Below are positions 5,658 through 45,660 of a stretch of 58,627 nt of DNA, in pieces. How positions within the stretch are numbered: the first letter of the stretch is position 1; each line of letters begins with the position of its first letter. The notes beneath the pieces are model-generated. The model searched no databases. It was not told where the DNA came from and saw nothing but the letters and a program-made list of their open reading frames with translations. Made by a program: the position numbers and the translations under genes. Source of the DNA: Candidatus Poseidoniales archaeon. GTDB taxonomy: Archaea; Thermoplasmatota; Poseidoniia; Poseidoniales; Poseidoniaceae. Location: assembly GCA_009887135.1 (NCBI GenBank), contig QXYA01000112.1:1-58627 (forward strand), in the 5' to 3' direction.

Positions 5658-6097
5658 TCCGCTGGTTTAGGCCACTTCTTTTTCAAGGTCTTTTCAAGGT
5701 CCTCACTCACGATTGCATTCCACCAATCACTCCCCTGCCAGATAGCATATTTTCCGCGTATGCCTCGCAAATCAGCGCCTTTAAGTTTACAATTTCTGAA
5801 ATTTGAGAGATTACATCGTGCTTTTCGTAAATCAGCGCCTCTGAAATCAGCTCCATCGAAAGCAGATTTCATAAGGTCCGCTTCGACCAAAGAGGCTTTG
5901 CGGAAATCACAATCAGTAAAGTCGCCTTCCGTTAAATCGGCCTCATCGAGTATTGCTCTTCGAAACGTTGAGCCCTTATGTCTTCCTTTACGGAGTAGAC
6001 TCTTGCTATGATTTTGATACGAATAGTCAAGGATGACATTTTCACCAGATTCTGGGTCGTCACGGGGGTCTCCCGTTCCGCCGCCTGACATGACCAT
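5639..6097 (-). CDS. Pentapeptide-repeat protein
   Basis: Consecutive A(D/N)LxX-type pentapeptides are present: ADLTEGDFTDCDFRKASLVEADLMKSAFDGADFRGADLRKARCNLSNFRNCKLKGADLRG. Confidence 0.8.
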   Translation of the reverse strand: MVMSGGGTGDPRDDPESGENVILDYSYQNHSKSLLRKGRHKGSTFRRAILDEADLTEGDFTDCDFRKASLVEADLMKSAFDGADFRGADLRKARCNLSNFRNCKLKGADLRGIRGKYAIWQGSDWWNAIVSEDLEKTLKKKWPKPADYSDSS

Positions 6098-20949: not shown

Positions 20950-21615
20950 ATGTTCATGCTGAGCGGACTTGGTACACATGGGCCTCAAGTTTCATCACTA
21001 GGTTTACTCGCTATCAATTCGATACTTTTCGCCTCAGCAATTTGGCTACTGATGCGCCCAAATAATCACCATAAAGGGTGGCTATGGTCTCTATTTCTCC
21101 TTGCTATCATCGCCTCGGGATCCCGGATATTACTGAGTGGCCTTCCAAACATTATGCCAGTCACAATCCTCGTAATAATGGTCGGTTCAAAGTATGGCCT
21201 TCAACGCAGCATCGCCTTTGTTATTCTTGTTACTGTATCCAGTAACGCAGTCCTTGGCGATGGCTGGTGGACTCTTTTCCAAGTCCTTGCTTGGTCCAGC
21301 GTCGCTGGCGTAAGTGCAGTGTTCTCGGTTCATAACAATCAGGGTAATCTTTCTATGAAGCGTCTTTCATTTGCTGCGGTTTGGAGCGTTCCATTGTTCA
21401 GTATGATCGTCTCACTTTCAATTCTTGATGGCTCAATGTCAAGTCTGGAATTTGTTCTTTACTTATTCAACGGAATTCCATTTGACGCCCTCCACATGAT
21501 GGGGAATATTTTCTTTGCAGTTTGGTGCGGAGTTTGGTTTGAACAAATCCTTTCTCTTCAAACCCCTTCCCAGCAAAGAATTGTTCGAGAGGATCAACAT
21601 GTCAGCATTGTCTGA
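20950..21615 (+). CDS. Polytopic membrane protein, possibly ECF-type S-component-like
   Basis: About six hydrophobic helices are present. LPNIMPVTILVIMVGSKYGLQRSIAFVIL resembles the helix-1/2 region of ECF substrate-capture subunits. That assignment is weak and from memory only. Confidence 0.45.
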   Translation: MFMLSGLGTHGPQVSSLGLLAINSILFASAIWLLMRPNNHHKGWLWSLFLLAIIASGSRILLSGLPNIMPVTILVIMVGSKYGLQRSIAFVILVTVSSNAVLGDGWWTLFQVLAWSSVAGVSAVFSVHNNQGNLSMKRLSFAAVWSVPLFSMIVSLSILDGSMSSLEFVLYLFNGIPFDALHMMGNIFFAVWCGVWFEQILSLQTPSQQRIVREDQHVSIV

Positions 21616-21970
21616 GCCTCCTACAATGGCCTTTCTTTGCCGTGCTGATTTAGAATTATCAGCAGGAAAACTTGCTGTACAATGCGCTCATGCAGCAATT
21701 GGTTCACTCAAGCAAGCGAAAAAGACACATTCGCGAATGGTACAGCGATGGCAGGAAACTGCTTCACGAAAAATTTGCTTGTCCGTTGAGGACGAAGAAG
21801 ATCTGATGTATTTTCTTGGTTTAGTCAAAGCAGCATCATTACCGTATTCACTTATTCAAGATGCAGGATTGACAGAAGTCGCGCCAGGAACCGTAACTGT
21901 GCTAGGAGTAGGGCCAGCACCTCGCCATACAATGGACCATCTTTTTTCTGAACTCAAGACCTACGATTGA
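21599..21970 (+). CDS. pth2: Peptidyl-tRNA hydrolase, archaeal/eukaryotic type (Pth2), divergent copy 1
   Basis: AGKLAVQCAHAAIGS...KICLSVEDEEDL...IQDAGLTEVAPGTVTVLGVGP matches the Pth2 family pattern. Start set at ATG 21599 (an alternative is 21626). It overlaps the end of the upstream membrane gene. Confidence 0.8.
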   Translation: MSALSEPPTMAFLCRADLELSAGKLAVQCAHAAIGSLKQAKKTHSRMVQRWQETASRKICLSVEDEEDLMYFLGLVKAASLPYSLIQDAGLTEVAPGTVTVLGVGPAPRHTMDHLFSELKTYD

Positions 21971-21979
21971 GGTGGATTC

Positions 21980-22399
21980 ATGGGGTTACGAAGTTTCATT
22001 CATCGTTTAACAGCCCCCAAACCTCTGAGGAGTTTGTCTCTTGATGAGAAGTTGAAAATGGTCTTCGTCGTAAACCATGAACTCAAAATGGGTAAAGGAA
22101 AGATTGCAGCTCAAGTAGCGCATGCAGCTGTTAAGGCTACACTTGCGTGTGGTGAACGAGATCCCGCTCTTCTCGATGCATGGTTCAAAACTGGTCAGAA
22201 GAAAATATGCGTTAAAGGAGATTCAGCAAAGCATTTGGAGCAATTATCCACCGATGCAAAAAGGAACGGCCTTCTTGCAAATAAGATTCACGATGCAGGG
22301 CATACCCAGATTCCAGCAGGTTCGTTCACAGTGCTGGCTCTAGGGCCTTGTAGGGACGAAGATGTCGAAACGATTACAGGCGATTTGAAATTACTTTGA
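21980..22399 (+). CDS. pth2: Peptidyl-tRNA hydrolase Pth2, canonical copy 2
   Basis: [22 protein letters not shown]...[12 protein letters not shown]...[21 protein letters not shown] matches the Pth2 family pattern. The 26-aa N-terminal extension may not be translated, in which case the start is ATG 22058. Confidence 0.85.
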
Positions 22400-26897: not shown

Positions 26898-27983
26898 TCA
26901 AAAAGACAAGTCGAATGCTCCATTATCATAGATTTGACCAGCATCGATAGCAGAAAGGAGCTTTCCCAGTCGGGATTTAACCGCATTTCTGGTTTTGTCA
27001 GCAGCACCAGCTATTGCGGTCAATCTGTTCTCTGCGACACTGAACTTCATACATGTTATTTGGAAAAGCATTGAACACAAAATTCGAGCAGGAACATTTG
27101 GTACAGGAGAGTCCCCGATGGTTGGTTCACCTAACTTGAAGAGTCTTTGATTCAAATCCTCCATAAGTTCGTCCTGAACTCCCTTCTCCAAATCAGCAAC
27201 CACATTTCGTAATCGTTGTTTCATGATTCTGATTTCTTCTGCTCTATTTGCAAGGGCCAATTCTCTTCTGTCCTTTGCAGGAGCGATGAGTTTCTTACCA
27301 TCCATCTCGACCTTTTCGCAGATTGAAAAGTACTTCTCGATGATCTTAGAGGCATCGATAACTTGTTTCATTGAAATTCCAGTATTCTCCAGCATAGCAG
27401 CCCAGTCAATACTCATTCCACCCCATCTTCCTTGGTAAACACGAAGGCAACCAAGTGCCAACAATTTCTCATTGTGGTGGGTATCTGCTCCTCTGGTTTT
27501 CATTCGACAAACAGAGTTCTTTGGAAGAATAACCTCTTCGTCTCCGGCGACTTCCTTCATGTTTGCCAAAACGGCCTCATCTTCGATAGGAAGTGTGGCA
27601 CGCGTTATGGCTTCCTTGGCTTTCATAGCATTCTCAGTCCCACTGAGTCTGACAGCAGCATCCATTGTGGCTTGGACCATCGGATGACAATCTTTAGCAT
27701 CGCGAGAGCTGATGTTGCGTAGAATCTTCCACTTGCCCTTTGCCTCTTTTTGAGTTCCAATATAGGATCCCAAACCGTTGCCCTTATTACCGGTCTTGAT
27801 TTTGGTAACTCTGGTGGTTGGAGTGTTGAATCCGTTTTCTCCCCAGATGGCACTACCATTGTCGTTTTGGTTGTTGGAGACTTGGTGTTCAGCCACCAGC
27901 CCACATTCATTGCAAACGAGTTCTCCTCGTGCAATGTTCATTTTCATGTCGTTACTTCCGCATTCTTCGCATTTTTCAGTCAT
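26898..27983 (-). CDS. tfb: Divergent TFIIB/TFB-like transcription factor
   Basis: The N-terminal zinc ribbon is CEECGSNDMKMNIARGELVCNECG. The C-terminal AENRLTAIAGAADKTRNAVKSRLGKLL resembles the last HTH of TFB cyclin repeat 2 (TQxEVAxxAGVTEVTIRNRYKEL). The central region is poorly conserved and longer than in canonical TFB. Confidence 0.6.
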   Translation of the reverse strand: MTEKCEECGSNDMKMNIARGELVCNECGLVAEHQVSNNQNDNGSAIWGENGFNTPTTRVTKIKTGNKGNGLGSYIGTQKEAKGKWKILRNISSRDAKDCHPMVQATMDAAVRLSGTENAMKAKEAITRATLPIEDEAVLANMKEVAGDEEVILPKNSVCRMKTRGADTHHNEKLLALGCLRVYQGRWGGMSIDWAAMLENTGISMKQVIDASKIIEKYFSICEKVEMDGKKLIAPAKDRRELALANRAEEIRIMKQRLRNVVADLEKGVQDELMEDLNQRLFKLGEPTIGDSPVPNVPARILCSMLFQITCMKFSVAENRLTAIAGAADKTRNAVKSRLGKLLSAIDAGQIYDNGAFDLSF

Positions 27984-28277
27984 TATATCGCCTTCTTCTT
28001 CCTTTTCCTAGTAACATGATTGCCGCAAACAAACCCGTTGATTAGGCTATATGGGAGCAAATCGGTTAGCAGGATTATATCTATATCCGGCGAACTATTT
28101 AAACCCATGTATTCTTGATGGCATTTAGAGTAAACATGAATTATTCTTGTTTCGAAATCATATGCTCTGGCCAAATAAAAAATCAACTTGATTTTCCCCT
28201 GACGAATAAAAAATAACAAAATGAAGTGAGTTTCCTTTTATACCCTCGTGATTCTTGTAGAGAACTGGGGGAGAAAG

Positions 28278-31200
28278 ATGATACAGAACGTTACTGTTGA
28301 AGCATGCTCTCCTTCTACTGTTGTGCCGCAATGGCTTCTACAACATTTAGAGGATGGCTCTAGCGATATCTTGATCATCTATCCCAATGAAACTGTTCGA
28401 GAGAATGTCATGAAGCGCATTAGTCTCGCCAGAGGAGCCATTGATTCCAGCCGCCACACAACACTAAATCGCCTCTGTACATCCTTGCAAATGGACTTCC
28501 GGTTTCCAGTAATAATTCCGAGATCTACAGTTGGTATCGTTCAAGTCCACAAGAAATTTTCAGATGCCGCTTCTGAATTTAGATTCCCACGAATGCATCC
28601 AGATGCATCAAGGACATGGTCACTATCCAAGACTGAACGATTGCTCCAACTCCATCGGTTCTCTACAATGCATGGCATTCTTAGAAAATGGGACGATGAT
28701 CCAGGAGTATCCGAGGCTGACCGCCTTCTTTCCACTTTCAGGGAAGTCAATCTTCTTCATGAACATCAAGTTATGGAAGAGTTAACAAACGCTCTTTTGC
28801 AAACTGATACGCAGACTCCATATTCATTATCAGCGGTAGAGGGGATTATTTTACTCAACCATCCTCCAGATTTCCAGAGTAACGAAAAACAATTTTTTAC
28901 CGCTTTAGCAACAAGGATTCCAATCCATCACCTTTGCGTACAAGGATCCTTCCGACTGGGATTACATGGTGCCTATATTGATGATGAAATCCAATATGTC
29001 AAATCCAAAGAGGAATTGCCTGATTGGGTTCCAGAACATCCTCTCATAACCTCACTTGAAGATATAAATAGAACAGAAGGAATCCATCTTGTATCCTTTG
29101 ATCAGGCTCCCCAAGTTCTTGATGCAGCTCTATCTGCTATCCGCCTTTATCGACAACATTACGCTGGTAAGATACTGGTTATCGATGCAGATCAAAATCG
29201 AAGAAGTGTTTGGAAGCGTAGACTTCAACAAATTGGCTTGGATTGTGACGCAGGTTCCGAAACAGTCGGTTCGACTTCGGCAGTTCAAGCAGTCCTTCGT
29301 TTCCTTTCAATCGCCGAAGGCCAAGACGCTTGGTCTGGGAATAAGTTGTTTGACATCATACAATCTCAAGCATTTCCGATTATTGAAAATCTCTTTTCGA
29401 ATCTCTCTCACCCGATAAATAAACATTGGAAGCCACAACCTAATCTCGATGTGCTGGAAAATATAGGGAGAAGTTTCCATGTCATCGGTGGTAATGGAGC
29501 ACTTTTCCGGTGGCTTGGTTCGTTATCAGTCGCTACTCCAACATCTTCTGAACCTTATCGAAGAAAAGCAGAAGAACAGGCCATTGAAGAAACAAGGTGG
29601 TGGCTCTATTCACTTGCCCGCGTCTGGGCTCCATTCCTAGATTCTGAAACACAATCGTTCATACAGCAACCACTGATTGGGAATTCAAGCGAGGTGGAAC
29701 TCCCATTACCTGAGATAAATTCACATCACAGAGAGGTCCTAGCCGATATTCTAGAGGCATGTGAATGGGGGCAACTTTTCAGCCGCACATCAACCTATGA
29801 TAGCTCGATTGGAGGGCTACAATCATGGATTCAAACAATTGACTCGATTACGCAATATGAGGCAACTGTAGATTTTATTGATATTTGCAAACTATCAGCA
29901 AACCAAACCAAACTTCCTCCAAACAGAGTTCGACACTCTGATGTGCAGATATGTATGCCAGAGCAAGCATATGGATCGCACGCCGATATTGTTCTCTTCG
30001 TTGGTATAGATTCAGAATCTTGGTCAATGAAACCTCCCCGTGTGCCATGGATAGATGATGCTGTAAGAGTGCAACTTGGTTTGAATGATTCCGATCATCC
30101 AATTCGCCGAGGACGACACGTATTCAAATCATTATTATCGACATGTAATTCTGCGATATTATTCGATACTAAACACGATGATTCTGCTGGAAACTCAACA
30201 CCTGTTGCAGAATATTTAGCAGAGATTGAACTTGCTGGAAAACTATCGCATCTGGCGGCTCCTCCAGATTTTCTCGTCAATTCTGTTTCTTCAGGTGCTG
30301 GCTGGTCATTCATAACTCGAGAGGACGGAAACTGGCTAACCTACAAGAGTTCAGCTTTGATATTACAAGGAAGTAAGGTCGAACTTTTGCGCGCAGAAAA
30401 CCTACCTCGAGACCGACGACAGCGAACTGGCCTCGCGTTAAAATCAGGAGGAACTCCTGAGGTGAACATCCAAACCCCAATTTCTCTTACAATCGGGGCT
30501 GAGAAGCAACTGAACCTCGATCGTTACCGCAGGCAACCAAAATTCAAAGCCACTGAAAAAGAAGATGCGATGCCCTGGAGTTACCGAGAAAATCTTCTTT
30601 CTGCACATGACCTTGTTCTTTCACCTTCACTCGGCCAAGCCAATACAGGTGGGGGAAGAACCGTAGGACATTGGCCCCATCTTGGATACAAAAAGAACGG
30701 AAACGCCCGGGGCCCATCCATTGACCCAAGGCCACTTCCACCAACGCAGAAAATCTCAGACTCACTCTCATTGATATGGACTACAAATCAACGAAGTGAT
30801 GAAGCAAAAGTTTGGTCCACAAATCGTTTGACTCCATGGATAAACTGTCCACGATTGGCGTGGTCTGAGCAAATATTGGAAGCAAAAGAAACACAACCTG
30901 AGGTCTCAGAAGATCTTGCGCCCCTTGCTCGAGGAACTCTTGTTCACTCGATAGAAGAATACCTCCTTTCATTACTTGGAGTCAATGTTGGTGATACACC
31001 ACTTGCTGAAGGTACACCAATTCATGTTGGCCTCGACCTTCCATTGGATCAGATTTGGGAATCGCTTTTGCAGCATCTCTCTCAACTCGCTCCTTGGTTA
31101 TCAAGAACGAATGCAGTATCTGTACACCGATGCAATGACCTTGTAGGGTGCTCTCCTGAGGAATGGGCCCAATGGCTTGAAGGTGAAAATCCACCGCAAA

Positions 31201-31955
31201 TTGGCGGACGGCTTGGACAACTCTTGTTGGCTGATTTCGCTCTAAATGCCGCAGGACCAATCGCTTCAGAGTGGCCACTCGAAGTGGAGACAGGTCGTTT
31301 CATCGAACTAGAGGGGCTCGACGACCATCTTGATTCAGCCACGCTGAAGATTTATGGCCGAATTGACAGAGTTGATGCACTCGTTCTTGATGCTGATTTG
31401 AATGAAGAAGTAATCGAAAAAGGTCTTATCGGCGATTCCAAAGAGGTCATTCCACTAAATTTCAATGGCGATGGGCCTCCTGCAAAACGGTTGATTATCA
31501 TAAGAGATCTGAAAACAATCGAAGGGCCAGACCCGAAAAAGGTCGGGTTACGCCATGCTTCTGGTTTGTTCAAAGAGATTCAACTTGCATTGTATGCCCG
31601 CGCATGGGAGATTGCTCACCCAGGTGACCGCGTAATTGGTGTGGGCATTTCAGAGGTCGGGGATACGACGCGTCATTATGTTGAACTCGACCCGGCTTTT
31701 GCATTCATCCCAGAAGAAGCATATTTAGGTGAAAGAACATTCTTTTCAATGAACCACTATAGAATCCCAAGTGAGGAAAACACACCGACAAGTAACCCAT
31801 TTAGAGCCTGGATAAGTTCTCGTCTTACCACCGCAATTCGAGCAAGAGATGCAAGTGAATCAGGATGGAACCATCCAACACCAGGCAAACATTGCAGTTA
31901 TTGTTCACTTGCAAATGACTGCCCTTCTGCCCTGATCGGAGTTGATGTGAAATGA
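28278..31955 (+). CDS. addB: AddB/RexB-like helicase-nuclease subunit: degenerate helicase region plus RecB-family nuclease with a 4-Cys iron-staple
   Basis: No Walker A motif was seen. The C-terminal nuclease motifs are GRIDRVD, IIIRDLKT and QLALYARAW. The cysteines are WINC (30846..30848) and HCSYCSLANDC (31893..31922), giving C-x(n)-C-x2-C-x5-C spacing as in AddB. Start set at ATG 28278, which follows GGGGGAG (the ORF track gives GTG 28248). The stop overlaps the next gene's start (ATGA). Confidence 0.75.
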   Translation: MIQNVTVEACSPSTVVPQWLLQHLEDGSSDILIIYPNETVRENVMKRISLARGAIDSSRHTTLNRLCTSLQMDFRFPVIIPRSTVGIVQVHKKFSDAASEFRFPRMHPDASRTWSLSKTERLLQLHRFSTMHGILRKWDDDPGVSEADRLLSTFREVNLLHEHQVMEELTNALLQTDTQTPYSLSAVEGIILLNHPPDFQSNEKQFFTALATRIPIHHLCVQGSFRLGLHGAYIDDEIQYVKSKEELPDWVPEHPLITSLEDINRTEGIHLVSFDQAPQVLDAALSAIRLYRQHYAGKILVIDADQNRRSVWKRRLQQIGLDCDAGSETVGSTSAVQAVLRFLSIAEGQDAWSGNKLFDIIQSQAFPIIENLFSNLSHPINKHWKPQPNLDVLENIGRSFHVIGGNGALFRWLGSLSVATPTSSEPYRRKAEEQAIEETRWWLYSLARVWAPFLDSETQSFIQQPLIGNSSEVELPLPEINSHHREVLADILEACEWGQLFSRTSTYDSSIGGLQSWIQTIDSITQYEATVDFIDICKLSANQTKLPPNRVRHSDVQICMPEQAYGSHADIVLFVGIDSESWSMKPPRVPWIDDAVRVQLGLNDSDHPIRRGRHVFKSLLSTCNSAILFDTKHDDSAGNSTPVAEYLAEIELAGKLSHLAAPPDFLVNSVSSGAGWSFITREDGNWLTYKSSALILQGSKVELLRAENLPRDRRQRTGLALKSGGTPEVNIQTPISLTIGAEKQLNLDRYRRQPKFKATEKEDAMPWSYRENLLSAHDLVLSPSLGQANTGGGRTVGHWPHLGYKKNGNARGPSIDPRPLPPTQKISDSLSLIWTTNQRSDEAKVWSTNRLTPWINCPRLAWSEQILEAKETQPEVSEDLAPLARGTLVHSIEEYLLSLLGVNVGDTPLAEGTPIHVGLDLPLDQIWESLLQHLSQLAPWLSRTNAVSVHRCNDLVGCSPEEWAQWLEGENPPQIGGRLGQLLLADFALNAAGPIASEWPLEVETGRFIELEGLDDHLDSATLKIYGRIDRVDALVLDADLNEEVIEKGLIGDSKEVIPLNFNGDGPPAKRLIIIRDLKTIEGPDPKKVGLRHASGLFKEIQLALYARAWEIAHPGDRVIGVGISEVGDTTRHYVELDPAFAFIPEEAYLGERTFFSMNHYRIPSEENTPTSNPFRAWISSRLTTAIRARDASESGWNHPTPGKHCSYCSLANDCPSALIGVDVK

Positions 31956-34900
31956 TTCCATTTAATCGAAGTCAACGATTGGGATTAAACCTCGATCAAC
32001 ATATCGCATTGGATGCTGGAGCAGGTACTGGGAAAACAACTGTCATGGCAGAACGTTATGTTCAGCATTTACTCTCCTCAGAACAAAGAGCAACCTGCGT
32101 TTTACCTTCTCCATTACGAAATGAACCATATGGGGCAGGAAAAGTAAAGTCCGCAAAGAGAGATAGGACTCCTTTGAATGAATGGAAAGGACTCCTGCCG
32201 CAGGAGATTGTAGCCATTACCTTCACGAGAAAGGCGGCTGCAGAATTACGTTCAAGAATTCGCAGTCGAATTCAATCTCTTCGAGCAGAGCCCGTGAAGA
32301 AGACGGATCGGTTAGGAATTCATGATCCGCGTCTTCGCCATCAAGGCGATGTATCAATGCTCATGTCGTTACTCGAAGCGGCACCGATTTCGACCATTGA
32401 CTCATTCCTCGGGGAAGTTCTCGCACCACATATTGACCTTGTAGCATTACATTTGAGCAGAGATCAACTGCCAGATGAACAGGCTCCATTATTGAGAACT
32501 CAAGCTCTAAACGCTGCCTGGAGGATTCGAAATGCACGAGATGGGTTTGAGGCTGGGCTCACACAATCCTGTGAAGAGTTCATCGAAGCCCGAAATCGTC
32601 TTGCGATTCGATTGGGAGGGCAATCTTCTGCTCAAACCGTGCTCACAGGCCTGCTTGAATCTTCTCTATTTGTTGAAGAATCAAAACGAAGATTGCGGAT
32701 GCGATCGATTCGAAACGAAATGCCATGGGATGGGTCTTCGCCTCCGAACTATCTTCTGATCGAGGATATGATTCTTGAGCGCTGTGGGCATCTTATTGAT
32801 GGTGTAGTTGAAGAGGCGTATGAATACCTGAATCAGTGGGTTGAAGTATTTACAAAAGATGGACGCCATGCAATGTTGGTGAATCCAAGTGGGGCTCCAA
32901 ACGAAAACACTCGTTTTAATCAACTTTCACAATTAGCTCGCGACCCACTTCCAACAACTCCAATCTCTCGGCTTCAATGGATTCACCAAGTGATCGTATC
33001 TGCCTGTGCCCCAGGCCAAGTAAAGAATACGACCCCCACCATTTTGAAATCAGGTGGATTCCATAGTCAGACAATGGGTGGATGGCATTCAGGACTTGTC
33101 AAATGGACGAATGTTTCCTTCCCTGGAATTACCAAGAAAGAATCGAAAACAATCACGAAAGGGATTCAAGATGAGGCGAAAGAAGCAGCCACCTTACTTC
33201 GAAATAGGCTTCACAATCCAGAGGATGGGCGCCTTCTCATGATGCTTTCTCGCGCATCATATGCTCTCAATCCACAACGAACTTTCGCCTTCAGAGATGC
33301 CAACGAAAATTATGATGTTACGGACATTGGGACTTCGCCTTGCCGCGACCCACCGCAAGGCAATCTACGAGTCTCAAGAGAACTTCAGGTTGAGGTTCTG
33401 GACGATTTGTATACTGTTCATGCTGGTTGTAAAGATCTTCTTCGCCATCTCAAGGCTCAAGAAGAGGCTCATGACTTCGACGATGTCCAATTGATGGTGG
33501 GCGATTTACTACTCGTACGTTGTCCAGAAATTGTTCGGCACTATTACCCACCTCAAGCGGTTCAAGCCTTGGATGACTTAGGAGAGGAAGCTTGGACTGA
33601 TGAGCATATTCGTAGAGCGCTGCAGTTGATGCAAGGGGATGAAGAAAAACAAAACGACCTTCGAAGAAGGTACGCACTTTTACAACAGATACGAGCAAGG
33701 TATGGGGCCTTCATTATTGATGAATATCAAGATACAAATCCAGAGCATGCACGTCTTCTAGCACGACTCTGGGGGCATAGAATGGATGGTTCCGATGAAA
33801 CGCCAGACCCTCTCGGCCCTTGGGATCCAACGATCTGTATTGTTGGGGATATGAAGCAGAGCATATACCGATTTAGACAAGCAGAAGTCACAGTAATGCG
33901 TCGAATGGTTGCCTCTATTCGCCTGGCTAATCGCCTTGAAGAGCATGAACCAAGAATGGAACATATCGCTCAGCAAGGGCATGGCCGAGACCCCCGCCCA
34001 GTAGGAGCAGGGGGAGAGACCGGCTCATTCATTCAAGCCAGCGAAATGGCTTCAGACGAATCGTCAGCAACATGGGATTATGTTTCCTTTGGAATCAATG
34101 ATTTTGGAACCGCAATCGAAGACAACATAATCCTTCAACGTCAAGAAGGACACATTGAATTAACTACAAATTTCCGTACAGCACCTCGTCTACTCAACAC
34201 ACTGAACCACATTTTCGATGACACATTCTCTGAACGTCATCATCAATTTCCAGGAGACTTCCATGCCTCCGCCCAACCCCTTCATGCTGGAAGGGAAACA
34301 GATAGAGAGGGTGTGCTCGAATGGTTACTGCCCACTCAAGCACAGATCGATGCTCTTCCTTTAGATTTGGAGGTAGGATACCACTTATTCGATTCAGAAT
34401 CTGCAAATCCGAGACACCTTGAACACGAACTTATTGCTGCCAGATTGGATTCTCTTGTCAGGGGTCATGCAACGAAACTCTGGTCATCAGAAGAACAAGA
34501 TTACGTCGATATTGAGCCGGAAGAAGTCATCTCTCCTGAAGATGTGATGATTCTCGTTCACTCAAGGAAACATATTCCTGACTTGATTAAGAGATTACAA
34601 GATCGAGGTTTGCCAGTATTGGCCGATAAGCAAGGTCAGTTGTTACAACAACCTATCGTCAAACCTCTACTGTCAGTACTTACTCTTCTTGCTAAACCAT
34701 CTTCACGTTTAGCTGCACATGGGCTTGTACGTTCTCCAATTGTGGGCGCAACATCCCTTCAAATTGAAGAAATATTTGGAGAGAAAGATGTTGAGAATTA
34801 CTGGCGCCATCTCTCAACCTATTTTTCAGAAGCTCCGATCGGTCATCTCTTGTCAATACTTTCCTCACTTATTGACAAAGGAGCCCTACACGAAATTTTT

Positions 34901-36925
34901 GACGTCGTTCTAGATTATAGCGACCTTTTGACAACTTATCCCGATGAGTCCGAACGTCAAGTTGCTGAAACATGGTGTGCTTTATTGTATAAAATAGGCT
35001 CAGAATGTGGGCATGAACCAAGCGCAATGCTTGCTAAGATGAATGCCTTAGCCTCGCTTGAGAACAAAGGACCTCAAGCGACCTCTTCACCAACAAGTGG
35101 TGCCATCCAAATCATGACAATTCATGGGGCGAAGGGATTGCAGGCGCCCGTTGTTATTGTAACAGGATTGTTCGAAGCAGGTCGCCGAAGTTCAAGCAAT
35201 GATGCCCAAAAGAATGTCCTCATTACTCCTGACGTAATTGCAGGAAGAATACAACCTTGGAAATCTAAAGAGAAGCCGCTTGATGGTCTTTGGATGCTTG
35301 CTAATCAAATGAATAAGGCTCAGAACCTGGCTGAGTTGCGACGCCAATTCTATGTTGCTCTTACCAGAGTTCGTGATCGCCTTATCTTTGCAGGTTCTCC
35401 TTCAAAGACGAGTGCAATGTCAACAGAAGGCTTCATCCTGGCAACAGGAAATCTCTCTGGAAACAACATGGGGGATTTACTCTTGGACGGGCTGCGTTAC
35501 ATGGGAGTCGTATCGAATGTTGAACAGCCATGGAGTCTCGGAGGGGACGCACAAGGAGAGCGGTTGACCGATTACAAAGACATTGAACTCGTTCTCGACC
35601 CGATGGGCGTCTTTTCATCATCAGGACTTCCAACAGATTCAGTACATGGTATCAGGATTTATCATCATCCAAATTGTTTTACTCAACAAACACCTGTGTC
35701 AGTTCTAAGCGAATGGTTAGAAGTAGAATCCAATCTGAATTACCAAGTCAAAGAAGTATTGGAAAATGAAATTGTAACGATATCTCCATCCCTAAAAATG
35801 ACCGCCCACGGCCTAGATGCAGCGTATTCCTGCCGCAGACGATTCTGGCTAAATCATGTACGTGGTTGGCAAACGGAACCTTTCAACATCCAATCCAAGG
35901 CAAGGACTATTGCCAGCGAGGAGGAACTTAAGGACAGGACTGGAGGAGAAGATTATGATGGTGAATCCTATGTTGGTTGGCCTTCAGCAACGTCATTTGG
36001 TTCAATGTTCCACCGCCTCGTTGAGATTGGGCTTGCTAATCCAGCGACAATGCAATCCGAAGATTCACCACTTTCTTCCGAATGGTTGAATGGCCAAGAA
36101 AACCGCTTACTTGAAACGAAAGAAATTGATGATGCGATCACATCTGAATCTGAATGGCACAAACTTTCGTATCAAGAGCAACAGCAAACACGATCCCGAA
36201 TTATCGAACTTGCTGAGTTATTGTCGAATGGCTTGCTCGGAAAATTAACCGAAGGAAAAGAAGTAAATGGCCAATTTGTAGAAGGGTTACAAACCGAAGC
36301 CTCATTCTACTTCACGAGAGATGTAGAATTAACTGATGTTTATCGCAATCCAACCGCTGGTCTCTCTCAATCGATTGTCACTCAAATTGATAATGTAGCC
36401 ATCACCTTTGAAGGTCAGGCAGATATTGTCTTAGCAGGCAGCCAAAGGAACGAGAAATGGCTTCAAGTTGTTGATCTGAAAACCTCAGGTTCGAGAACGG
36501 ATGACTTGTCTGAACATCGCTTGCAAAAAGAAATTGAAGATTGGGATTCATCTTCGCCTCAAAATGCTGAAGAGGTTGAGATGTTACGAAACCATCGTCT
36601 CCAACTCACTCTCTATTCAATGGTGTTCCAGAAACAGGAGTCGTTCAAATCGGAAGATGAACGTCGCAATATCAAGCCACCAGCTCTCCTTATCAGTACG
36701 TCTGGAAGGCTTGTTGAAATGCCTCAGAAGATGTATGAGGAAGCACAGACTGAACTCACTTCACTCCTGGAATGGATTGCAGTGCTAACTGCAAATCAAA
36801 ATGATGTTAGCGAGCCGAAAAGGCTTCCAATGGATTCAATCGATACATGTAAGAAATGTCCGTTCTACAAAGGAGAACTTCGAATGTGTGGGCCTGACGG
36901 GACAGATTTGGGAATCAACAACTAA
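31952..36925 (+). CDS. addA: AddA/UvrD-family SF1A helicase fused to a RecB-family nuclease with four Cys
   Basis: All UvrD motifs are present: DAGAGTGKTT (I), FIIDEYQDTNPEH (II), IVGDMKQSIYRFRQAE (III), TTNFRTAPRLL (IV), IMTIHGAKGLQAPVVIV (V) and FYVALTRVRDRLIFAG (VI). The C-terminal nuclease has GQADIVL, QVVDLKTS and LQLTLYS. Cysteines occur at SCRRRFW (35831) and CKKCPFYKGELRMC (36848..36889). Confidence 0.85.
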   Translation: MIPFNRSQRLGLNLDQHIALDAGAGTGKTTVMAERYVQHLLSSEQRATCVLPSPLRNEPYGAGKVKSAKRDRTPLNEWKGLLPQEIVAITFTRKAAAELRSRIRSRIQSLRAEPVKKTDRLGIHDPRLRHQGDVSMLMSLLEAAPISTIDSFLGEVLAPHIDLVALHLSRDQLPDEQAPLLRTQALNAAWRIRNARDGFEAGLTQSCEEFIEARNRLAIRLGGQSSAQTVLTGLLESSLFVEESKRRLRMRSIRNEMPWDGSSPPNYLLIEDMILERCGHLIDGVVEEAYEYLNQWVEVFTKDGRHAMLVNPSGAPNENTRFNQLSQLARDPLPTTPISRLQWIHQVIVSACAPGQVKNTTPTILKSGGFHSQTMGGWHSGLVKWTNVSFPGITKKESKTITKGIQDEAKEAATLLRNRLHNPEDGRLLMMLSRASYALNPQRTFAFRDANENYDVTDIGTSPCRDPPQGNLRVSRELQVEVLDDLYTVHAGCKDLLRHLKAQEEAHDFDDVQLMVGDLLLVRCPEIVRHYYPPQAVQALDDLGEEAWTDEHIRRALQLMQGDEEKQNDLRRRYALLQQIRARYGAFIIDEYQDTNPEHARLLARLWGHRMDGSDETPDPLGPWDPTICIVGDMKQSIYRFRQAEVTVMRRMVASIRLANRLEEHEPRMEHIAQQGHGRDPRPVGAGGETGSFIQASEMASDESSATWDYVSFGINDFGTAIEDNIILQRQEGHIELTTNFRTAPRLLNTLNHIFDDTFSERHHQFPGDFHASAQPLHAGRETDREGVLEWLLPTQAQIDALPLDLEVGYHLFDSESANPRHLEHELIAARLDSLVRGHATKLWSSEEQDYVDIEPEEVISPEDVMILVHSRKHIPDLIKRLQDRGLPVLADKQGQLLQQPIVKPLLSVLTLLAKPSSRLAAHGLVRSPIVGATSLQIEEIFGEKDVENYWRHLSTYFSEAPIGHLLSILSSLIDKGALHEIFDVVLDYSDLLTTYPDESERQVAETWCALLYKIGSECGHEPSAMLAKMNALASLENKGPQATSSPTSGAIQIMTIHGAKGLQAPVVIVTGLFEAGRRSSSNDAQKNVLITPDVIAGRIQPWKSKEKPLDGLWMLANQMNKAQNLAELRRQFYVALTRVRDRLIFAGSPSKTSAMSTEGFILATGNLSGNNMGDLLLDGLRYMGVVSNVEQPWSLGGDAQGERLTDYKDIELVLDPMGVFSSSGLPTDSVHGIRIYHHPNCFTQQTPVSVLSEWLEVESNLNYQVKEVLENEIVTISPSLKMTAHGLDAAYSCRRRFWLNHVRGWQTEPFNIQSKARTIASEEELKDRTGGEDYDGESYVGWPSATSFGSMFHRLVEIGLANPATMQSEDSPLSSEWLNGQENRLLETKEIDDAITSESEWHKLSYQEQQQTRSRIIELAELLSNGLLGKLTEGKEVNGQFVEGLQTEASFYFTRDVELTDVYRNPTAGLSQSIVTQIDNVAITFEGQADIVLAGSQRNEKWLQVVDLKTSGSRTDDLSEHRLQKEIEDWDSSSPQNAEEVEMLRNHRLQLTLYSMVFQKQESFKSEDERRNIKPPALLISTSGRLVEMPQKMYEEAQTELTSLLEWIAVLTANQNDVSEPKRLPMDSIDTCKKCPFYKGELRMCGPDGTDLGINN

Positions 36926-37611: not shown

Positions 37612-38571
37612 ATGAGCATCAACACACAATCAATCGACGACGTCTTGTTTCCCAAGATTGAGGCATATTCAACCGGTATGCTAGCGGTTTCACAACGACA
37701 CACAATTGCTTGGGAATGCAGCGGAAATCCAGATGGGATTCCAGTCATTGTCATTCACGGTGGACCAGGCGGCGGAAGCCAACCATCGTACCGCCGGTAT
37801 TTTGATCCACAGAAATGGAACATCGTTCAATTTGACCAACGAGGCTGTGGCCAATCAACCCCATATGCAGACCTTGAAGAAAATACAACCATGCATCTGG
37901 TTTCAGATATTGAAGCTCTACGTGAACATTTTGGAATTGAAACGTGGCACGTCTTTGGAGGTTCATGGGGATCAACACTCGCCCTCATCTATGGCCAAAA
38001 CCATCCAGAACGTGTTCGTTCTTTCATATTGAGGGGGATCTTCATGTGTCGAAAATCTGAACTTCACTGGTTCTATCAAGATGGAGCAAGCCATGTCTTC
38101 CCTGATGCCTTTGAGCCTTATCACAATCACATTCCTGAAGGTGAACAAGATGCGCTTATTCCTGCATATTACAAGCGGCTAACAGACGAAGATGTAGACG
38201 TCAGGAGGGCCGCTGCTAAGGAATGGACACGTTGGGAAATGGCAACGAGTCGCCTCTTCCCAGATCCGTCCTATCTCGAAAAGGCAGAGGATCTTGACTT
38301 CGCAGTTGCATTCGCTCGAATAGAATGTCACTATTTCATCAATGGAATATTCGTTGAAGAAGCTTACATACTGAATAATTCGTCAATTATCGAACATATT
38401 CCTGCTGTAATTGTACAGGGCCGATACGACATGGTTTGTCCAGTGAAAAGTGCATGGGAATTGCACAAAGAATTGCCAGCTTCAGAACTTATCATTGTTC
38501 CAGATGCTGGTCATTCGATGGGTGAAGTTTCGATTGCAAAGTCCTTAGTGGATGCGACCAATACCATTTAG
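37612..38571 (+). CDS. pip: Proline iminopeptidase (prolyl aminopeptidase)
   Basis: VIHGGPGGG is present, along with the nucleophile elbow GGSWGSTLAL and the C-terminal DAGHS. Start set at ATG 37612. Confidence 0.9.
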   Translation: MSINTQSIDDVLFPKIEAYSTGMLAVSQRHTIAWECSGNPDGIPVIVIHGGPGGGSQPSYRRYFDPQKWNIVQFDQRGCGQSTPYADLEENTTMHLVSDIEALREHFGIETWHVFGGSWGSTLALIYGQNHPERVRSFILRGIFMCRKSELHWFYQDGASHVFPDAFEPYHNHIPEGEQDALIPAYYKRLTDEDVDVRRAAAKEWTRWEMATSRLFPDPSYLEKAEDLDFAVAFARIECHYFINGIFVEEAYILNNSSIIEHIPAVIVQGRYDMVCPVKSAWELHKELPASELIIVPDAGHSMGEVSIAKSLVDATNTI

Positions 38572-38641
38572 CCTCAATACATTGTCTAAGTGGGAAATCG
38601 TGAGTATATATGTGATAAGGGAGAAGGAAGGAGTTCTCATC

Positions 38642-40381
38642 ATGGCAAGAGATTCAGGTCATGGGACTGGTAATTCTTTTCGATTGTTTATCTACCTGGG
38701 AATGCTATTATTGATGCCTATGAGTGGTATAGCAGAAAACGACACAATCCCGTCCGTTGACTGCTCCACAATCTCGGTGGAAGCTGATTCTGAAACCGAC
38801 TGCACTATTGATCTAAGCGACTATCCTGGAGTGTCTTCAATTCGATATGAATATGTTCTTTCTTCTACGAATACAGAATCTGTTTCATCTGTGATCGACA
38901 CAGGAGCTGCTCATACTTGTGGTATACTTGAAAATGGTTCAGCAATGTGTTGGGGGCGAGATACATATGGCCAACTTGGAGATGGCGGAGAGGCTACAAA
39001 CAATATCAGGCCGAGCACGTATGTCGATGTGCCAAACGATGTCACGATTTCACAAATCTTTACTGGGCCCTACAGGACGTGTGTACTTCTTAGCAACGAT
39101 GGAACAAATTGCTGGGGATTTAACGAAAATGGTCAAAGCGGCGATGAATCCACAAATACCTACAAATCACCAACGAATCCTGTGAATTTCCCAGATGGAC
39201 GAGTTGCTAAATCAATAGGAATGGGGCATAAACACACATGTGCAATTTTAGATAACGACCAACTTGCTTGCTGGGGTGCTGATTTGTACGGTGCTCTAGG
39301 AAACGGGGAATCAACTTCTGAAGATGAATATGCGCCCGTCATCATATCCACTCCGGCAGATCGAACAACGGTTAAGGTTGAAGCAGGAGTAAGCCATACG
39401 TGTATTCTCATGGATGATGGAGGAATTATGTGTTGGGGTAGAGACAATGTGGGACAACTCGGCAATGGAGAGAGTAACCCAACCGCATACGCTCCTGCAT
39501 CAGATACCATATTGCCAGAAGGAAGAGTTGCAATGGATCTTTCTGTTGGTAATGAGCACGCATGTGCAATTTTAGACAACGGTTCAGCGGTTTGTTGGGG
39601 AATGAATAACTACGGGCAACTTGGAGATAATTCTACAACGAATGCCAAAAGCCCAACGTTTGTACATTTGCCAAATGGAACTAAAGCGACTAAGATCAGT
39701 TCTGGATCTGCACATACATGTGCAACAATTGACAATGGAAGTTTGTATTGTTGGGGGCACAACAAAAATAGTCGCTTAGGCATTGGTACGAGCGGAGGAG
39801 TTCACACAATCCCAATGTTTGTATCTGCAAATCAAAGCATCGTCGAAATTAGTGCTTCAGCGGAACACACATGTGTTCTTTCTGAGAACGGGTCAATCTC
39901 CTGTTGGGGGCGTAATAATTACGGTCAACTAGGATTGGGACATACCGGTGAACGAAATACCCCAAATCAATTAGATTGGAACATTGCTCCATTTTCATCC
40001 ACATATGGTCCTGCTCCAGTTGAGGCGTGGGAAGATGAACAACCCTTGAGAGGACGAGCAACTTCTGGCGAGAATAATGTTTGGACTGTTCGCCTGGAAG
40101 TTCCTGAAACGAGCGAATTAGGAACCTATGATTTGGAAATTACACTTCTGAAAATAGGGGGTGTACGATCGACTTTGATTATAGATGAAGCCCTTCAAAT
40201 TTCAGAGAAGACTGCGGCCGATGAATCGGACGAGCGAACCCTGATGTACATGGCGATAGGAGGAGGAGTGGTTGTATTGCTTTTATTGTCCTTATTATTC
40301 AGGAAAAAGGATACTGAATCACCAGCTCGTTCAGAAATAAAGAAACATAAGCCCCAAGAAGGGCCATCTCAGAAGTTCTAG
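38642..40381 (+). CDS. Secreted, C-terminally anchored RCC1-repeat (seven-bladed propeller) protein
   Basis: The N-terminus is hydrophobic (FRLFIYLGMLLLMPMSGIA). Seven repeats of the form H(T/A)C.(I/L)..(N/D)G...CWG.N.YGQLG are present. The C-terminal TM is MYMAIGGGVVVLLLLSLLF followed by RKK. Start set at ATG 38642, which follows GGAAGGAG. Confidence 0.8.
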   Translation: MARDSGHGTGNSFRLFIYLGMLLLMPMSGIAENDTIPSVDCSTISVEADSETDCTIDLSDYPGVSSIRYEYVLSSTNTESVSSVIDTGAAHTCGILENGSAMCWGRDTYGQLGDGGEATNNIRPSTYVDVPNDVTISQIFTGPYRTCVLLSNDGTNCWGFNENGQSGDESTNTYKSPTNPVNFPDGRVAKSIGMGHKHTCAILDNDQLACWGADLYGALGNGESTSEDEYAPVIISTPADRTTVKVEAGVSHTCILMDDGGIMCWGRDNVGQLGNGESNPTAYAPASDTILPEGRVAMDLSVGNEHACAILDNGSAVCWGMNNYGQLGDNSTTNAKSPTFVHLPNGTKATKISSGSAHTCATIDNGSLYCWGHNKNSRLGIGTSGGVHTIPMFVSANQSIVEISASAEHTCVLSENGSISCWGRNNYGQLGLGHTGERNTPNQLDWNIAPFSSTYGPAPVEAWEDEQPLRGRATSGENNVWTVRLEVPETSELGTYDLEITLLKIGGVRSTLIIDEALQISEKTAADESDERTLMYMAIGGGVVVLLLLSLLFRKKDTESPARSEIKKHKPQEGPSQKF

Positions 40382-43695: not shown

Positions 43696-45660
43696 ATGGA
43701 AGCAGTATTTATCGCATTATTTTTCTTCTTTACCGTCGTTGGGTTTTCAACGTTCTATCTCCAGAAAGGAATTGGCACCATGGCCGATCCTATGCGCCAA
43801 TTTGGATTGTTCCTTCTCAACAAAGCACCAGCAGGTATTGTTGATTTGTTCAATGACGAAAAGGGCAGTGGAGCAAAGACTTGGATGAACCTTGGAATGA
43901 TTTGGCTGACTCTTGCAGCTATTGGAACATTCCTTTCCCTTTGGCATGATTATGATCCAGCCGCACTTGACTCTCTTGCGAGTATCGGATGGGCATATGA
44001 TGACGGCAGTGCCCTCGCCACATTTGTTAACGCAACTCTAATCACAGGTCTTTTCTCTATTCTTCTCGGTGGCGGTCTAGTTGCAGTTGCTCGAAGTGGC
44101 GCAGGTAAAATGGCCAGTGAGTCAAATGCGAGTCTGACTGCGCTTCTCTTCAGCGTACTCACTGCAGCAGCTCTTCTCCTTCCAACAATTCTCGGCCTTC
44201 TGGCTGACCTTAGCGCTGAAAATGAAACACTTCTCCAAGATCTGTTTATGCATTCTCTGCGGGCATTCATCATCATCGCAGTTATGATCAACGTTCTTCT
44301 TACAGTTGCTCAACGCAAGGGTGAGACTATTCAGGCGAGTAATTGGTTCGTCTTTATGGCTCTTGCATCCTTCATCTTCGGTTCACAATTCCGATTCTTT
44401 GGTGAATTAGCCGACTCTACACAAGTTGTTTGGCTTGGTGAAAGAATGACTCAATCTTGGGTTATGATTTCTCTATTCTTTGCAGTTGCATATCATCTTG
44501 TTCCACGTGCGGCAAGCCGTCCAATATGGTCTGATTCAATGACAAAGGCCAGCATGCTCCTTCTCTTCTTTACGCTTCCACCGTTCATGATGTCCTCTGC
44601 AGACGCAGGTACGCTACTCGAGAATCTCGGTGCTATTCTAATGACGCTTGCACTTCTGCCTATTTTCGCAGGTTCAGTCAATATCATCATGACTGCAGCA
44701 GGAAACGCCACTGGCATAATTGCTCGACCTGGGGCTATGGCAGCAACTCTCGCAATGATTGCATTCCCAATCTTTGCCATCGGAGGCTACTTCACTTCCC
44801 TGGATGTTTTCATCGGGCTGGGAACACTCAATGACATGGCTACAACCGTCGATATCGGATTCCTATGGACTGTAGGTGGACTGATGGCAGTTGCTTGTAT
44901 CAGTGAATCATATCCACTTGCTGCAAACCGTCAATTGGCCTCTTCTTCCTCTGCATCTCTAACCACACTCTTCGTCGCCTTTGGTGGCATCACTTCGACC
45001 GTTGCAAAGATCATGGGAGACTTCACCGAAAAGGCACTTCTCGAATCTGGCAGTGAAGACATTGTAATGACCGATGGCGGATTTAGTTTAACGGCAGCAG
45101 TTCTATTCTATGTCGCCTCGATTGGTATCATTCTCCTTTTCATGAATCTCATTCGAACTTCTGTCGGTGGAATGAAGACCGATACGACCGCATCCACAAC
45201 CTCTGACATTGCTCGTTACTCTCTTCAGACAGGTGAATCCTCAATCCGTAAACTCTTGCAACGAGGCGTCGGTGTCGATACTGTTCTCGTAGTTGGTGCG
45301 GATGTTGAAGATGACGGAGGGGTCGAAATAATCGAAGTTTCCTCAACACTTCACAATGATGAAATCTCAGAGTTCCCGGTCGTCAAAACCGAACTTGAGA
45401 TGCTTTCAGACTATTTGGAAAAGAAGAACATGACCATCTTCGAATTCTTTAGATCCATTGATTTGGACGATTCAGGAAACATCGATGGATTTGAATTACA
45501 ACAGGCTCTCATCAATTCTAACATTGCAGACCTTCCTCCATGGGATGTGATTAAGCTCATGGAAATGATCGACCTCGATGGTGATGGTAGAATCAACCTT
45601 CCTGAATTAGATATTGCAATTGCCCGAGTTCGACCAAACCCATTCTCTGAAGAAGAGTGA
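43696..45660 (+). CDS. Polytopic membrane protein resembling a ligand-less heme-copper-oxidase/NOR subunit I, fused to a C-terminal EF-hand pair
   Basis: At least ten hydrophobic helices are present. The segment AVAYHLVPRAASRPIWSDSM...LLPIFAGSVNIIMTAAG...LNDMATTVDIGFLWTVGG parallels, from memory, CcoN MYYFVPKQAERPVYSYRL...LLAPSWGGMINGMMTLSG...HYTDWTIGHVHAGALG, but without the histidines. Two canonical EF loops are present: DLDDSGNIDGFE (45460..45495) and DLDGDGRINLPE (45571..45606). Confidence 0.6.
   Translation: MEAVFIALFFFFTVVGFSTFYLQKGIGTMADPMRQFGLFLLNKAPAGIVDLFNDEKGSGAKTWMNLGMIWLTLAAIGTFLSLWHDYDPAALDSLASIGWAYDDGSALATFVNATLITGLFSILLGGGLVAVARSGAGKMASESNASLTALLFSVLTAAALLLPTILGLLADLSAENETLLQDLFMHSLRAFIIIAVMINVLLTVAQRKGETIQASNWFVFMALASFIFGSQFRFFGELADSTQVVWLGERMTQSWVMISLFFAVAYHLVPRAASRPIWSDSMTKASMLLLFFTLPPFMMSSADAGTLLENLGAILMTLALLPIFAGSVNIIMTAAGNATGIIARPGAMAATLAMIAFPIFAIGGYFTSLDVFIGLGTLNDMATTVDIGFLWTVGGLMAVACISESYPLAANRQLASSSSASLTTLFVAFGGITSTVAKIMGDFTEKALLESGSEDIVMTDGGFSLTAAVLFYVASIGIILLFMNLIRTSVGGMKTDTTASTTSDIARYSLQTGESSIRKLLQRGVGVDTVLVVGADVEDDGGVEIIEVSSTLHNDEISEFPVVKTELEMLSDYLEKKNMTIFEFFRSIDLDDSGNIDGFELQQALINSNIADLPPWDVIKLMEMIDLDGDGRINLPELDIAIARVRPNPFSEEE

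Follow-up and report, generated by a model that had tools for sequence, protein, structure and literature searches.

A very divergent AddAB-type gene pair conserved across the archaeal order Poseidoniales

How an archaeon comes to carry two very large adjacent genes whose products resemble the subunits of AddAB, a helicase-nuclease generally regarded as bacterial, and what such proteins would do there, are the questions raised by contig QXYA01000112.1 of a Candidatus Poseidoniales archaeon. The whole stretch of 58,627 nucleotides (nt) that was analysed is referred to here as the window, and all coordinates are positions within it on the forward strand. A preliminary description of this DNA, made from the sequence alone, had read the two open reading frames, here called ORF1 and ORF2, as AddB-like and AddA-like genes in an archaeal setting. 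We find the pair to be a real, very divergent and order-wide archaeal variant of AddAB that has not been annotated as such, and not a new kind of system, and we consider it likely that the two proteins are the subunits of an AddAB-type heterodimeric helicase-nuclease. In public records the proteins appear as 'hypothetical protein', 'PD-(D/E)XK nuclease family protein', 'UvrD-helicase domain-containing protein' or 'exonuclease V beta subunit'.

ORF1 (28278..31955, +) encodes the AddB-like subunit of 1225 amino acids, or of 1235 if translation begins at an upstream GTG at 28248, and ORF2 (31952..36925, +) encodes the AddA-like subunit of 1657 amino acids, which has an SF1A UvrD-type motor, a C-terminal RecB-family nuclease and four cysteines of interest. 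The two frames share an ATGA start/stop overlap (31952..31955, +) indicative of translational coupling, so that the sizes and the coupling given in the preliminary description stand, and every motif quoted there could be located and mapped back to nucleotides. This arrangement is not peculiar to the contig, as ORF2 lies directly after ORF1 in all 73 of the species loci with room downstream, and the inferred junction is ATGA in 47 of the 73 loci, GTGA in 7 and TTGA in 1. As in AddAB, the genes are adjacent and co-oriented, with the AddB-like (nuclease-only) gene first and the AddA-like gene second.

The larger protein is the more readily placed by sequence. ORF2 matches the Pfam families UvrD-helicase, UvrD_C and PDDEXK_1, and among the NCBIfam models it scores best against addA_Gpos (158 bits), followed by recB (138 bits) and addA_alphas (129 bits), with PcrA and UvrD at about 70 bits; all of these scores fall well short of the curated cut-offs. 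When a 21-sequence profile was compared with the PDB, the closest solved relative was Bacillus subtilis AddA (3u44_A, E-value 7.9e-31), and behind it came UvrD1, AdnB and RecB. The helicase motifs, mapped by residue and by nucleotide, extend over 32018..35368 (+) and comprise GAGTGKT at residue 23 (32018-32038), DEYQD at residue 590 (33719-33733), GDMKQSIYRFRQA at residue 632 (33845-33883), NFR at residue 740 (34169-34177), TIHGAKGL at residue 1056 (35117-35140) and YVALTR at residue 1134 (35351-35368). Most of the residues in these motifs are invariant among the 21 homologues and nearly all of the others are at least 90% conserved.

The nuclease domain of ORF2 (35789..36922, +) contains FHRLVE (35996-36028), GQAD at residue 1488 (36413-36424), VVDLKT at residue 1506 (36467-36484) and QLTLY at residue 1551 (36602-36616), and its catalytic residues are invariant among the homologues. 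A predicted model of the domain, with a predicted local distance difference test score (pLDDT) of 80.1, was matched by Foldseek to the nucleases of Dna2 (E-value 1.3e-5), RecB (4.6e-4), AddB (1.2e-3) and Cas4 (0.02). ORF2 therefore has what is expected of an AddA protein, namely a full SF1A motor joined to a RecB-family nuclease with the pattern D...(D/E)xK...QxxxY, as the preliminary description had proposed, and because its helicase motifs and nuclease residues are conserved, and mostly invariant, it looks like an active helicase-nuclease of the AddA/RecB clade. The scores place it in the wider clade and outside the curated AddA equivalogs. A conserved insert is also present at about residues 650-735 (33900-34170), between helicase motifs III and IV, which holds the almost invariant segment GRDPRPVGAGGE and was left unaligned with a haloarchaeal AddA-like protein in BLASTP.

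ORF1 is far more divergent, with PDDEXK_1 as its only Pfam match (residues 1073-1216), and since sequence and profile searches were uninformative its assignment required structure prediction. From an alignment of 38 sequences, reaching 21% identity, residues 31-1225 were modelled with AlphaFold (mean pLDDT 86.2, predicted template modelling score 0.66). In a Foldseek search of the PDB the top five matches of this model were all B. subtilis AddB chains, aligned over the full length (E-values 2.2e-18 to 1.8e-16, template modelling (TM) scores of about 0.52), the best being 4cei_B (E-value 2.2e-18, TM 0.51/0.53). They were followed by mycobacterial AdnA (6ppj_A, E-value 7.8e-13), by UvrD, PcrA and Rep (about 1e-8 to 1e-7) and by RecC (about 1e-5). 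At the profile level the 38-sequence alignment gave sub-threshold matches to Cas4 and AdnA only, although the weak match to AdnA is collinear in three pieces, these being a remnant of the helicase domain ('aDlvilagld..sWs' against 'EWDFVVIAGVQEGLWP'), the DLKT motif and C-x2-C-x5-C.

The motor of ORF1 appears to be degenerate whilst its nuclease is intact. No match to the Walker A expressions G..G.GK[ST] or [AG]....GK[ST] is present anywhere in the protein, and a motif scan found no DExx motif II. Where an N-terminal Walker A loop would be expected, ORF1 has ILIIYPNE (28368..28391, +), a beta-strand followed by YPNE; 19 homologues show no variation at Y35, P36, E38 or R41, and the model opens with a strand and then a helix. 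The nuclease motifs, whose coordinates were checked, lie within 30933..31595 (+) and are GTLVHSIEE (30933-30959), GRIDRVD at residue 1027 (31356-31376), RDLKT at residue 1076 (31503-31517) and QLALY at residue 1102 (31581-31595). In the 38 sequences no variation is seen at H890, D1030, K1079, Q1102 or Y1106, and D1077 is kept in at least 90%. The full-length fold match to AddB, the missing P-loop and the conserved nuclease residues together identify ORF1 as an AddB-like subunit, with a predicted helicase-shaped scaffold lacking a P-loop and an intact RecB-family nuclease at the C-terminus. Thus the hallmarks of AddB, which joins an inactive helicase-like fold to a C-terminal RecB-family nuclease, are evident in the predicted structure where the sequence models fail to report them. 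The absence of Walker A and the terminal nuclease bracketed by cysteines had both been read correctly in the preliminary description, and the fold and profile searches that it proposed as a check favoured no family other than the AddA/RecB clade for ORF2 and AddB for ORF1.

The cysteines of the two nucleases recall the iron-sulfur 'iron staple' of AddB, in which one cysteine lies upstream of the nuclease core and a C-x2-C-x5-C motif downstream. Judged by its sequence ORF1 has this arrangement. Its putative first ligand is Cys857 in NCPRLAW (30846..30848, +), which is invariant in both the 19 and the 38 sequences and lies in a motif that aligns to CPRLLW of Cas4 (4r5q), and its three putative C-terminal ligands are found in CSYCSLANDC (31893..31922, +), that is C1206-x2-C1209-x5-C1215, of which the first two do not vary in the diverse alignment and the third is at least 90% conserved there. 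In ORF2 the corresponding residues are C1294 in SCRRRFW (35831-35833, +) and those of the C-terminal segment CKKCPFYKGELRMC (36848-36889, +), with the spacing C1633-x2-C1636-x9-C1646. All 21 sequences have C1633 and C1636, 20 have C1294 and 18 have C1646, and the exceptions have compensating cysteines nearby. Aligned locally with hhalign, profile against profile, the two nuclease domains give a weak match (E-value 0.004) that is nevertheless collinear, pairing CPRxxW with CxRRxW, the histidine, DLKT, QLxLY, CxxC and the last cysteine of each. A [4Fe-4S] iron staple is thus probably carried by the nuclease of each subunit.

Whether these cysteines behave as a set was assessed with genes taken from GTDB species-representative loci, comprising 60 complete copies of ORF2 and 73 of ORF1. 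The canonical pattern is retained in 53 of the 60 ORF2 proteins, with C-x8-C-x2-C in three, a local four-cysteine variant in one and loss of all four residues in the remaining three (L048, L059 and L070). In ORF1 it is retained in 63 of the 73, replaced by C-x2-C-x2-C in four and by Y/S/Y in five (L047, L048, L049, L054 and L059), and one protein is truncated. The five proteins with Y/S/Y keep GRIDRVD and IRDLKT, and loss in both subunits is shared by L048 and L059. As the cysteines are lost all-or-none or relocated together, they fit the ligands of one metal cluster, and the conservation test suggested in the preliminary description is passed, with four cysteines kept in most homologues and rearranged or lost in particular clades. 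Two variants may be described separately. In one Poseidoniales clade the AddB-like C-terminal cysteines have become Tyr/Ser/Tyr (GRHYSYSSIRHVYP) with the nuclease motifs intact, and at L061, L065, L069 and L075 the AddB-like protein has C-x2-C-x2-C, while at the last three of these loci the AddA-like protein has C-x8-C-x2-C and a shortened C-terminus, such that both subunits are altered. Loss of the cysteines may be an iron-sparing change.

The nearest relatives of both proteins are found in metagenome-assembled genomes of Candidatus Poseidoniales and Poseidoniaceae (Marine Group II), the best relative of ORF1 being from a Black Sea genome (96% amino-acid identity), and relatives occur in 116 GTDB species, including those on a 2.06 Mb Marine Group II scaffold (CM001443.1) and on contigs of 441 kb and 778 kb. 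Within the window the pair is flanked by genes for MCM, a GatE-type GatB_N protein, a TFIIB zinc ribbon protein, Trm1, tandem PTH2 proteins and PAC2, so domain scans bear out the archaeal surroundings that had been noted before. The shared gene order reads MCM, GatE, a PQQ-like or DUF4430 protein, DUF6580, PTH2, PTH2, a beta-eliminating lyase, up to three genes, ORF1, ORF2 and a methyltransferase. It is kept where identity to ORF1 is 33-38%, and in the most divergent relatives (21-26% identity) the pair still lies downstream of PTH2. A search of 1.84 billion representative proteins with the ORF1 profile gave 279 matches, about 35 of them full length; no ordinary bacterial AddB was evident among the best 150 of the 279, and those ORF1 relatives that have names are all from Poseidoniales, even in the most divergent clusters. 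Searches by tblastn with the ORF2 nuclease domain against plasmids and with ORF1 against phages returned nothing.

This order-wide synteny and distribution suggest that the pair probably came from bacteria, entering the lineage no later than the base of the order Poseidoniales, and that it has probably been passed on vertically since then as a core chromosomal operon. Such an origin is consistent with the early gain by Group II/III Euryarchaeota of hundreds of genes, of which more than 90% came from bacteria (PMC4122925). The Poseidoniales AddB-like gene is also present in two loci with bacterial labels, L024 (CAXQWT010000040.1, 'Salipiger bermudensis'; 58% identity) and L063 (NZEQ01000040.1, 'Verrucomicrobiales bacterium'; 36% identity). 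Since the same archaeal neighbourhood is found elsewhere, ORF1 relatives are essentially restricted to Poseidoniales and no step in base composition is seen, wrong binning of archaeal contigs is the probable explanation of both labels.

Set beside B. subtilis AddAB (3u44, 4cei), the pair has the same adjacent genes, an AddA-like protein with a full SF1A motor and a RecB-type nuclease, and an AddB-like protein with the full-length fold and a C-terminal nuclease within C...C-x2-C-x5-C. The differences are considerable, however, and a number of them weigh against an AddAB assignment. ORF2 falls far below the cut-offs of the curated AddA equivalogs (158.3 against 707.65 bits for TIGR02785, and 128.7 against 860.75 bits for TIGR02784), and ORF1 reaches 13 bits against the AddB model TIGR02786, whose cut-off is 486. 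Neither the single ORF1 sequence nor a 19-sequence profile found a significant solved structure in the PDB, and identity between ORF1 and B. subtilis AddB is about 11% in the structural alignment. ORF1 lacks the Walker A motif, and ORF2 is about 400 amino acids longer than AddA (1657 against 1232 in 3u44_A), with extra segments and with four cysteines in its nuclease whose spacing of x2 and x9 departs from the canonical x2 and x5. The existence of cluster-less natural variants shows that some lineages can do without the clusters, which contrasts with reports on B. subtilis AddB. Finally, in an archaeal host the downstream recombinase would have to be RadA and not RecA.

Several of these departures are less unusual when a wider range of AddAB-like systems is considered. 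In the Bacillus paradigm, reviews place the cluster in AddB only (PMC3378879), and the preliminary description had on these grounds singled out the cysteines on the AddA-like subunit; they are indeed there, but they are not new, being found also in UvrD-Cas4-like fusions and in most cyanobacterial AddA-like proteins. Among the latter (P0361-P0480) 110 of 120 have a C-terminal C-x2-C-x5-C together with an upstream CPxxF(Y) cysteine, and many are chromosomal, so that cysteine sets on both AddAB subunits appear, from these patterns, to be the norm in cyanobacteria. A pair on a plasmid of Picosynechococcus sp. PCC 7117 (L088; 890 and 1073 amino acids) likewise has the AddB-like gene first, an AddB-like protein with four cysteines and no P-loop, and an AddA-like protein with iron-staple-type cysteines. 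These cyanobacterial proteins differ from ours in being bacterial and much smaller, in their AddA spacing (x2/x5 against x2/x9 in ORF2), in a similarity to ORF2 of about 100 bits, and in lying sometimes on plasmids amid toxin-antitoxin genes. Their C-terminal pattern is C-x2-C-P-Y-x2-I-C, and some homologues bear the name 'BREX-3 system P-loop-containing protein BrxF', apparently through mis-annotation or because they are fusions. The same layout, with an AddB-like gene without a P-loop placed first, is also seen at a Sulfurospirillum plasmid locus.

Nor are the Poseidoniales the only archaea with such genes. That the pair occurs in an archaeon, although AddAB is regarded as bacterial, is real, but it is not unique in this respect, since tblastn against plasmids recovered pairs on haloarchaeal megaplasmids, including those of Halapricum desulfuricans (pHSR-Est01; L086, 1-9745) and Salinirubellus salinus (L087), and a passage in PMC2887965 (2010), citing Cromie 2009, has addAB transferred 'even into the archaea'. 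The haloarchaeal pairs share the archaeal host, the gene order and overlap, and an AddB-like protein with four cysteines and no P-loop, the nuclease of which aligns to that of ORF1 with an hhalign probability of 95.6%, including C-x2-C-x5-C and the region of the first cysteine. The two pairs that were scanned are recognised by curated models (AddA 311-340 bits, AddB 45-75 bits) and are by these scores far more orthodox than the Poseidoniales pair. In further contrast, their AddA-like subunit has no C-terminal cysteine cluster, and they are plasmid-borne where the Poseidoniales genes belong to a syntenic chromosomal core. The Halapricum pair lies directly beside genes for Rad50-like (AAA ATPase, double-strand break repair) and Mre11-like (DNA repair exonuclease) proteins.

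Other enzymes of similar build were examined as candidates and rejected. RecBCD resembles the pair in that ORF2 scores 138 bits against RecB models and the fold of ORF1 matches that of RecC distantly, but RecC has no functional nuclease site, whereas ORF1 retains both an intact site and its cysteines; the RecC match is far below that of AddB, and no RecD-like SF1B gene is present in the window. Dna2 provides the nuclease closest in fold to the C-terminal domain of ORF2, but it is an SF1B helicase whose nuclease lies on the N-terminal side, as opposed to the SF1A motor and C-terminal nuclease of ORF2. Dna2 and the UvrD-Cas4-like fusions of bacteria and mesophilic archaea (Hudaiberdiev et al. 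2017, PMC5704561) have in common with ORF2 a helicase joined to a PD-(D/E)XK nuclease with four cluster-type cysteines. The fusions stand alone or near restriction-modification or Dcm genes and lack an AddB-like partner, whereas ORF2 always has this partner and has no type III restriction-modification or Dcm/Vsr neighbours. An identity with Gabija GajB, or with any PADLOC system, was set aside because the ORF2 matches are generic UvrD-type ones of at most 66 bits and ORF1 has no match.

Of the explanations that compete with an AddAB-type enzyme, the one that survives best, though we regard it as unlikely, is that the pair serves mainly in defence against viruses or plasmids, much as the UvrD-Cas4-like fusions linked to restriction-modification systems or GajB would, and degrades invading linear DNA instead of repairing the chromosome. 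In bacteria and mesophilic archaea, fusions of UvrD to a four-cysteine Cas4-like nuclease are known to be defence-linked (PMC5704561), toxin-antitoxin genes surround the cyanobacterial plasmid pair, and a methyltransferase gene is conserved just downstream of the Poseidoniales pair. The GajB matches of ORF2 could be read in the same way, but their 66 bits compare with 158 for AddA. The locus, moreover, is a fixed, order-wide syntenic core among housekeeping genes and not a variable island, with no restriction, Dcm/Vsr or other defence genes near the pair, and the methyltransferase can be excluded from the system since it matches only generic class I S-adenosylmethionine-dependent families (Methyltransf_23/11/12/25) and is convergently transcribed.

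Still less probable is the suggestion that the two proteins act separately, with ORF2 as a stand-alone helicase-nuclease, in the manner of a UvrD-Cas4 fusion or of RecB by itself, and ORF1 as an independent structure-specific nuclease, or that they form a two-motor enzyme like mycobacterial AdnAB (6ppj, 6ppr). AdnA and AdnB each carry a UvrD-like motor domain. AdnAB is also a two-subunit enzyme of UvrD-like and RecB-nuclease parts, AdnA ranks second among the fold matches of ORF1, and the C-terminal C-x2-C-x5-C of AdnA aligns with that of ORF1; for separate action one might point to the stand-alone UvrD-nuclease fusions that exist (PMC5704561) and to one divergent locus in which a 48-nt gap replaces the overlap between the genes. 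Both versions have to contend with adjacency in 73 of 73 loci and a start/stop overlap in most of them, with the full-length match of ORF1 to AddB, which is a dedicated partner subunit, and with the rearrangement of cysteines in both subunits within the same clades. A second active motor is further excluded by the lack of Walker A in ORF1, and identity with AdnAB was rejected on this absence, on that of DExx motif II, on the YPNE at the P-loop position and on the Foldseek ranking (2e-18 for AddB against 8e-13 for AdnA). The weakest alternative, that bacterial DNA was joined to archaeal DNA by mis-assembly or a binning error, appeals to protein families typical of bacteria and to the bacterial labels on 2 of 80 related contigs (L024 and L063), and its probability is negligible because guanine-plus-cytosine content is flat (0.43-0.47) across both junctions, ORF1 relatives are essentially confined to Poseidoniales, and the synteny check that the preliminary description called for showed the pair to have the same archaeal neighbours at each Poseidoniales locus examined, in independent assemblies from many projects and on the long contigs and scaffold already mentioned.

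With regard to expression, the ATG at 28278 is the likelier start of ORF1 than the GTG at 28248, since homologue alignments begin there and it is preceded by a TATA-box-like TTTTATA (28236..28242, +), about 36 nt before the ATG, and by GGGGGAG (28267..28273, +), a candidate ribosome-binding stretch 4 nt before it; the GTG lies between the two. The position of TTTTATA would fit an archaeal promoter with a short leader. Divergent from ORF1, a 361-amino-acid protein (26898-27983, -) has an N-terminal TFIIB-type zinc ribbon only, which is below the Pfam cut-off (26.7 against 29 bits), with no recognisable cyclin-fold core; its position is conserved in L003 and it looks like an atypical TFB-like protein. 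The tandem PTH2 paralogues (21515-21970 and 21980-22399, +) are a duplication conserved in the Poseidoniales loci L001-L003. Elsewhere in the window are a giant reading frame running off its end (50384-58624, -; more than 2746 amino acids), the product of which begins with a hydrophobic segment, matches no Pfam family and may be a giant surface protein; a 609-amino-acid protein (38552-40381, +) with a signal-like N-terminus, six RCC1 repeats resembling an RCC1-like beta-propeller and a C-terminal hydrophobic anchor; a membrane-like protein of 654 amino acids (43696-45660, +) with a C-terminal EF-hand pair; and a small pentapeptide-repeat protein (5639-6097, -). Rfam and tRNA scans of the window found one tRNA-Arg only, which is unrelated to the pair.

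By analogy with AddAB, a working model for the Poseidoniales enzyme can be put forward. ORF2, as the AddA equivalent, would be the only active motor, an SF1A helicase tracking 3'->5', and would supply the nuclease for that strand, and ORF1, as the AddB equivalent, would provide the helicase-shaped scaffold and a second nuclease that cuts the displaced 5' strand. Each nuclease would probably be pinned by a [4Fe-4S] iron staple whose cysteines flank the catalytic core, one on its N-terminal and three on its C-terminal side. Double-stranded DNA ends that are blunt or almost so would be the loading site, and the complex would unwind and degrade them and leave 3' single-stranded DNA for the archaeal RadA, with linear foreign DNA being destroyed incidentally. 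The pair is most likely a housekeeping DNA-end resection enzyme, and the fact that it keeps its place among housekeeping genes throughout the order favours a role in chromosomal maintenance, in which it would serve end resection for RadA-dependent recombination and broken replication forks. RecBCD and AddAB also degrade phage DNA, and a secondary role in degrading linear viral DNA would for this reason be compatible with a housekeeping resection enzyme.

The archaeal pathway that such an enzyme might stand in for is itself not universal. The preliminary description had taken Mre11-Rad50-HerA-NurA to be the normal route in archaea, but HerA-NurA is established mainly for thermophilic archaea, being absent from Haloferax volcanii, and the mechanism of end resection remains a question for archaea without it (PMC7776575). 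As a more tentative proposal, and one that we think rather doubtful as a whole, a bacterial-derived AddAB-like enzyme with two clusters could be the main long-range resection activity of the Poseidoniales, feeding RadA in a hybrid pathway that replaces the HerA-NurA of thermophiles, with some open-ocean clades having replaced the cluster cysteines of one subunit or of both, but not the nuclease, possibly to spare iron.

In the literature searched, no paper was found that links the Poseidoniales to AddAB or RecBCD; the genome surveys searched leave the DNA repair of Marine Group II undiscussed, and a phylogenomic survey of the Poseidoniales mentions no helicase, nuclease or DNA repair other than photolyase. 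The recognition of two large, universally conserved Poseidoniales genes as AddAB-type offers a concrete candidate for end resection in a mesophilic archaeon, and it raises the question of how a bacterial-type resection enzyme would hand over to RadA. The natural variants, with two clusters, with rearranged ligands or with no cluster, could show what the iron staple is for in the AddB, Cas4 and Dna2 nucleases. The pair is also a clear example of a bacterial-type informational gene pair that was anciently acquired and is now order-wide, in line with the early bacterial gains described above. Marine Group II are among the most abundant archaea of the surface ocean and, to our knowledge, have no cultured representative, and the findings suggest that in these organisms broken DNA ends are handled by machinery of bacterial type.

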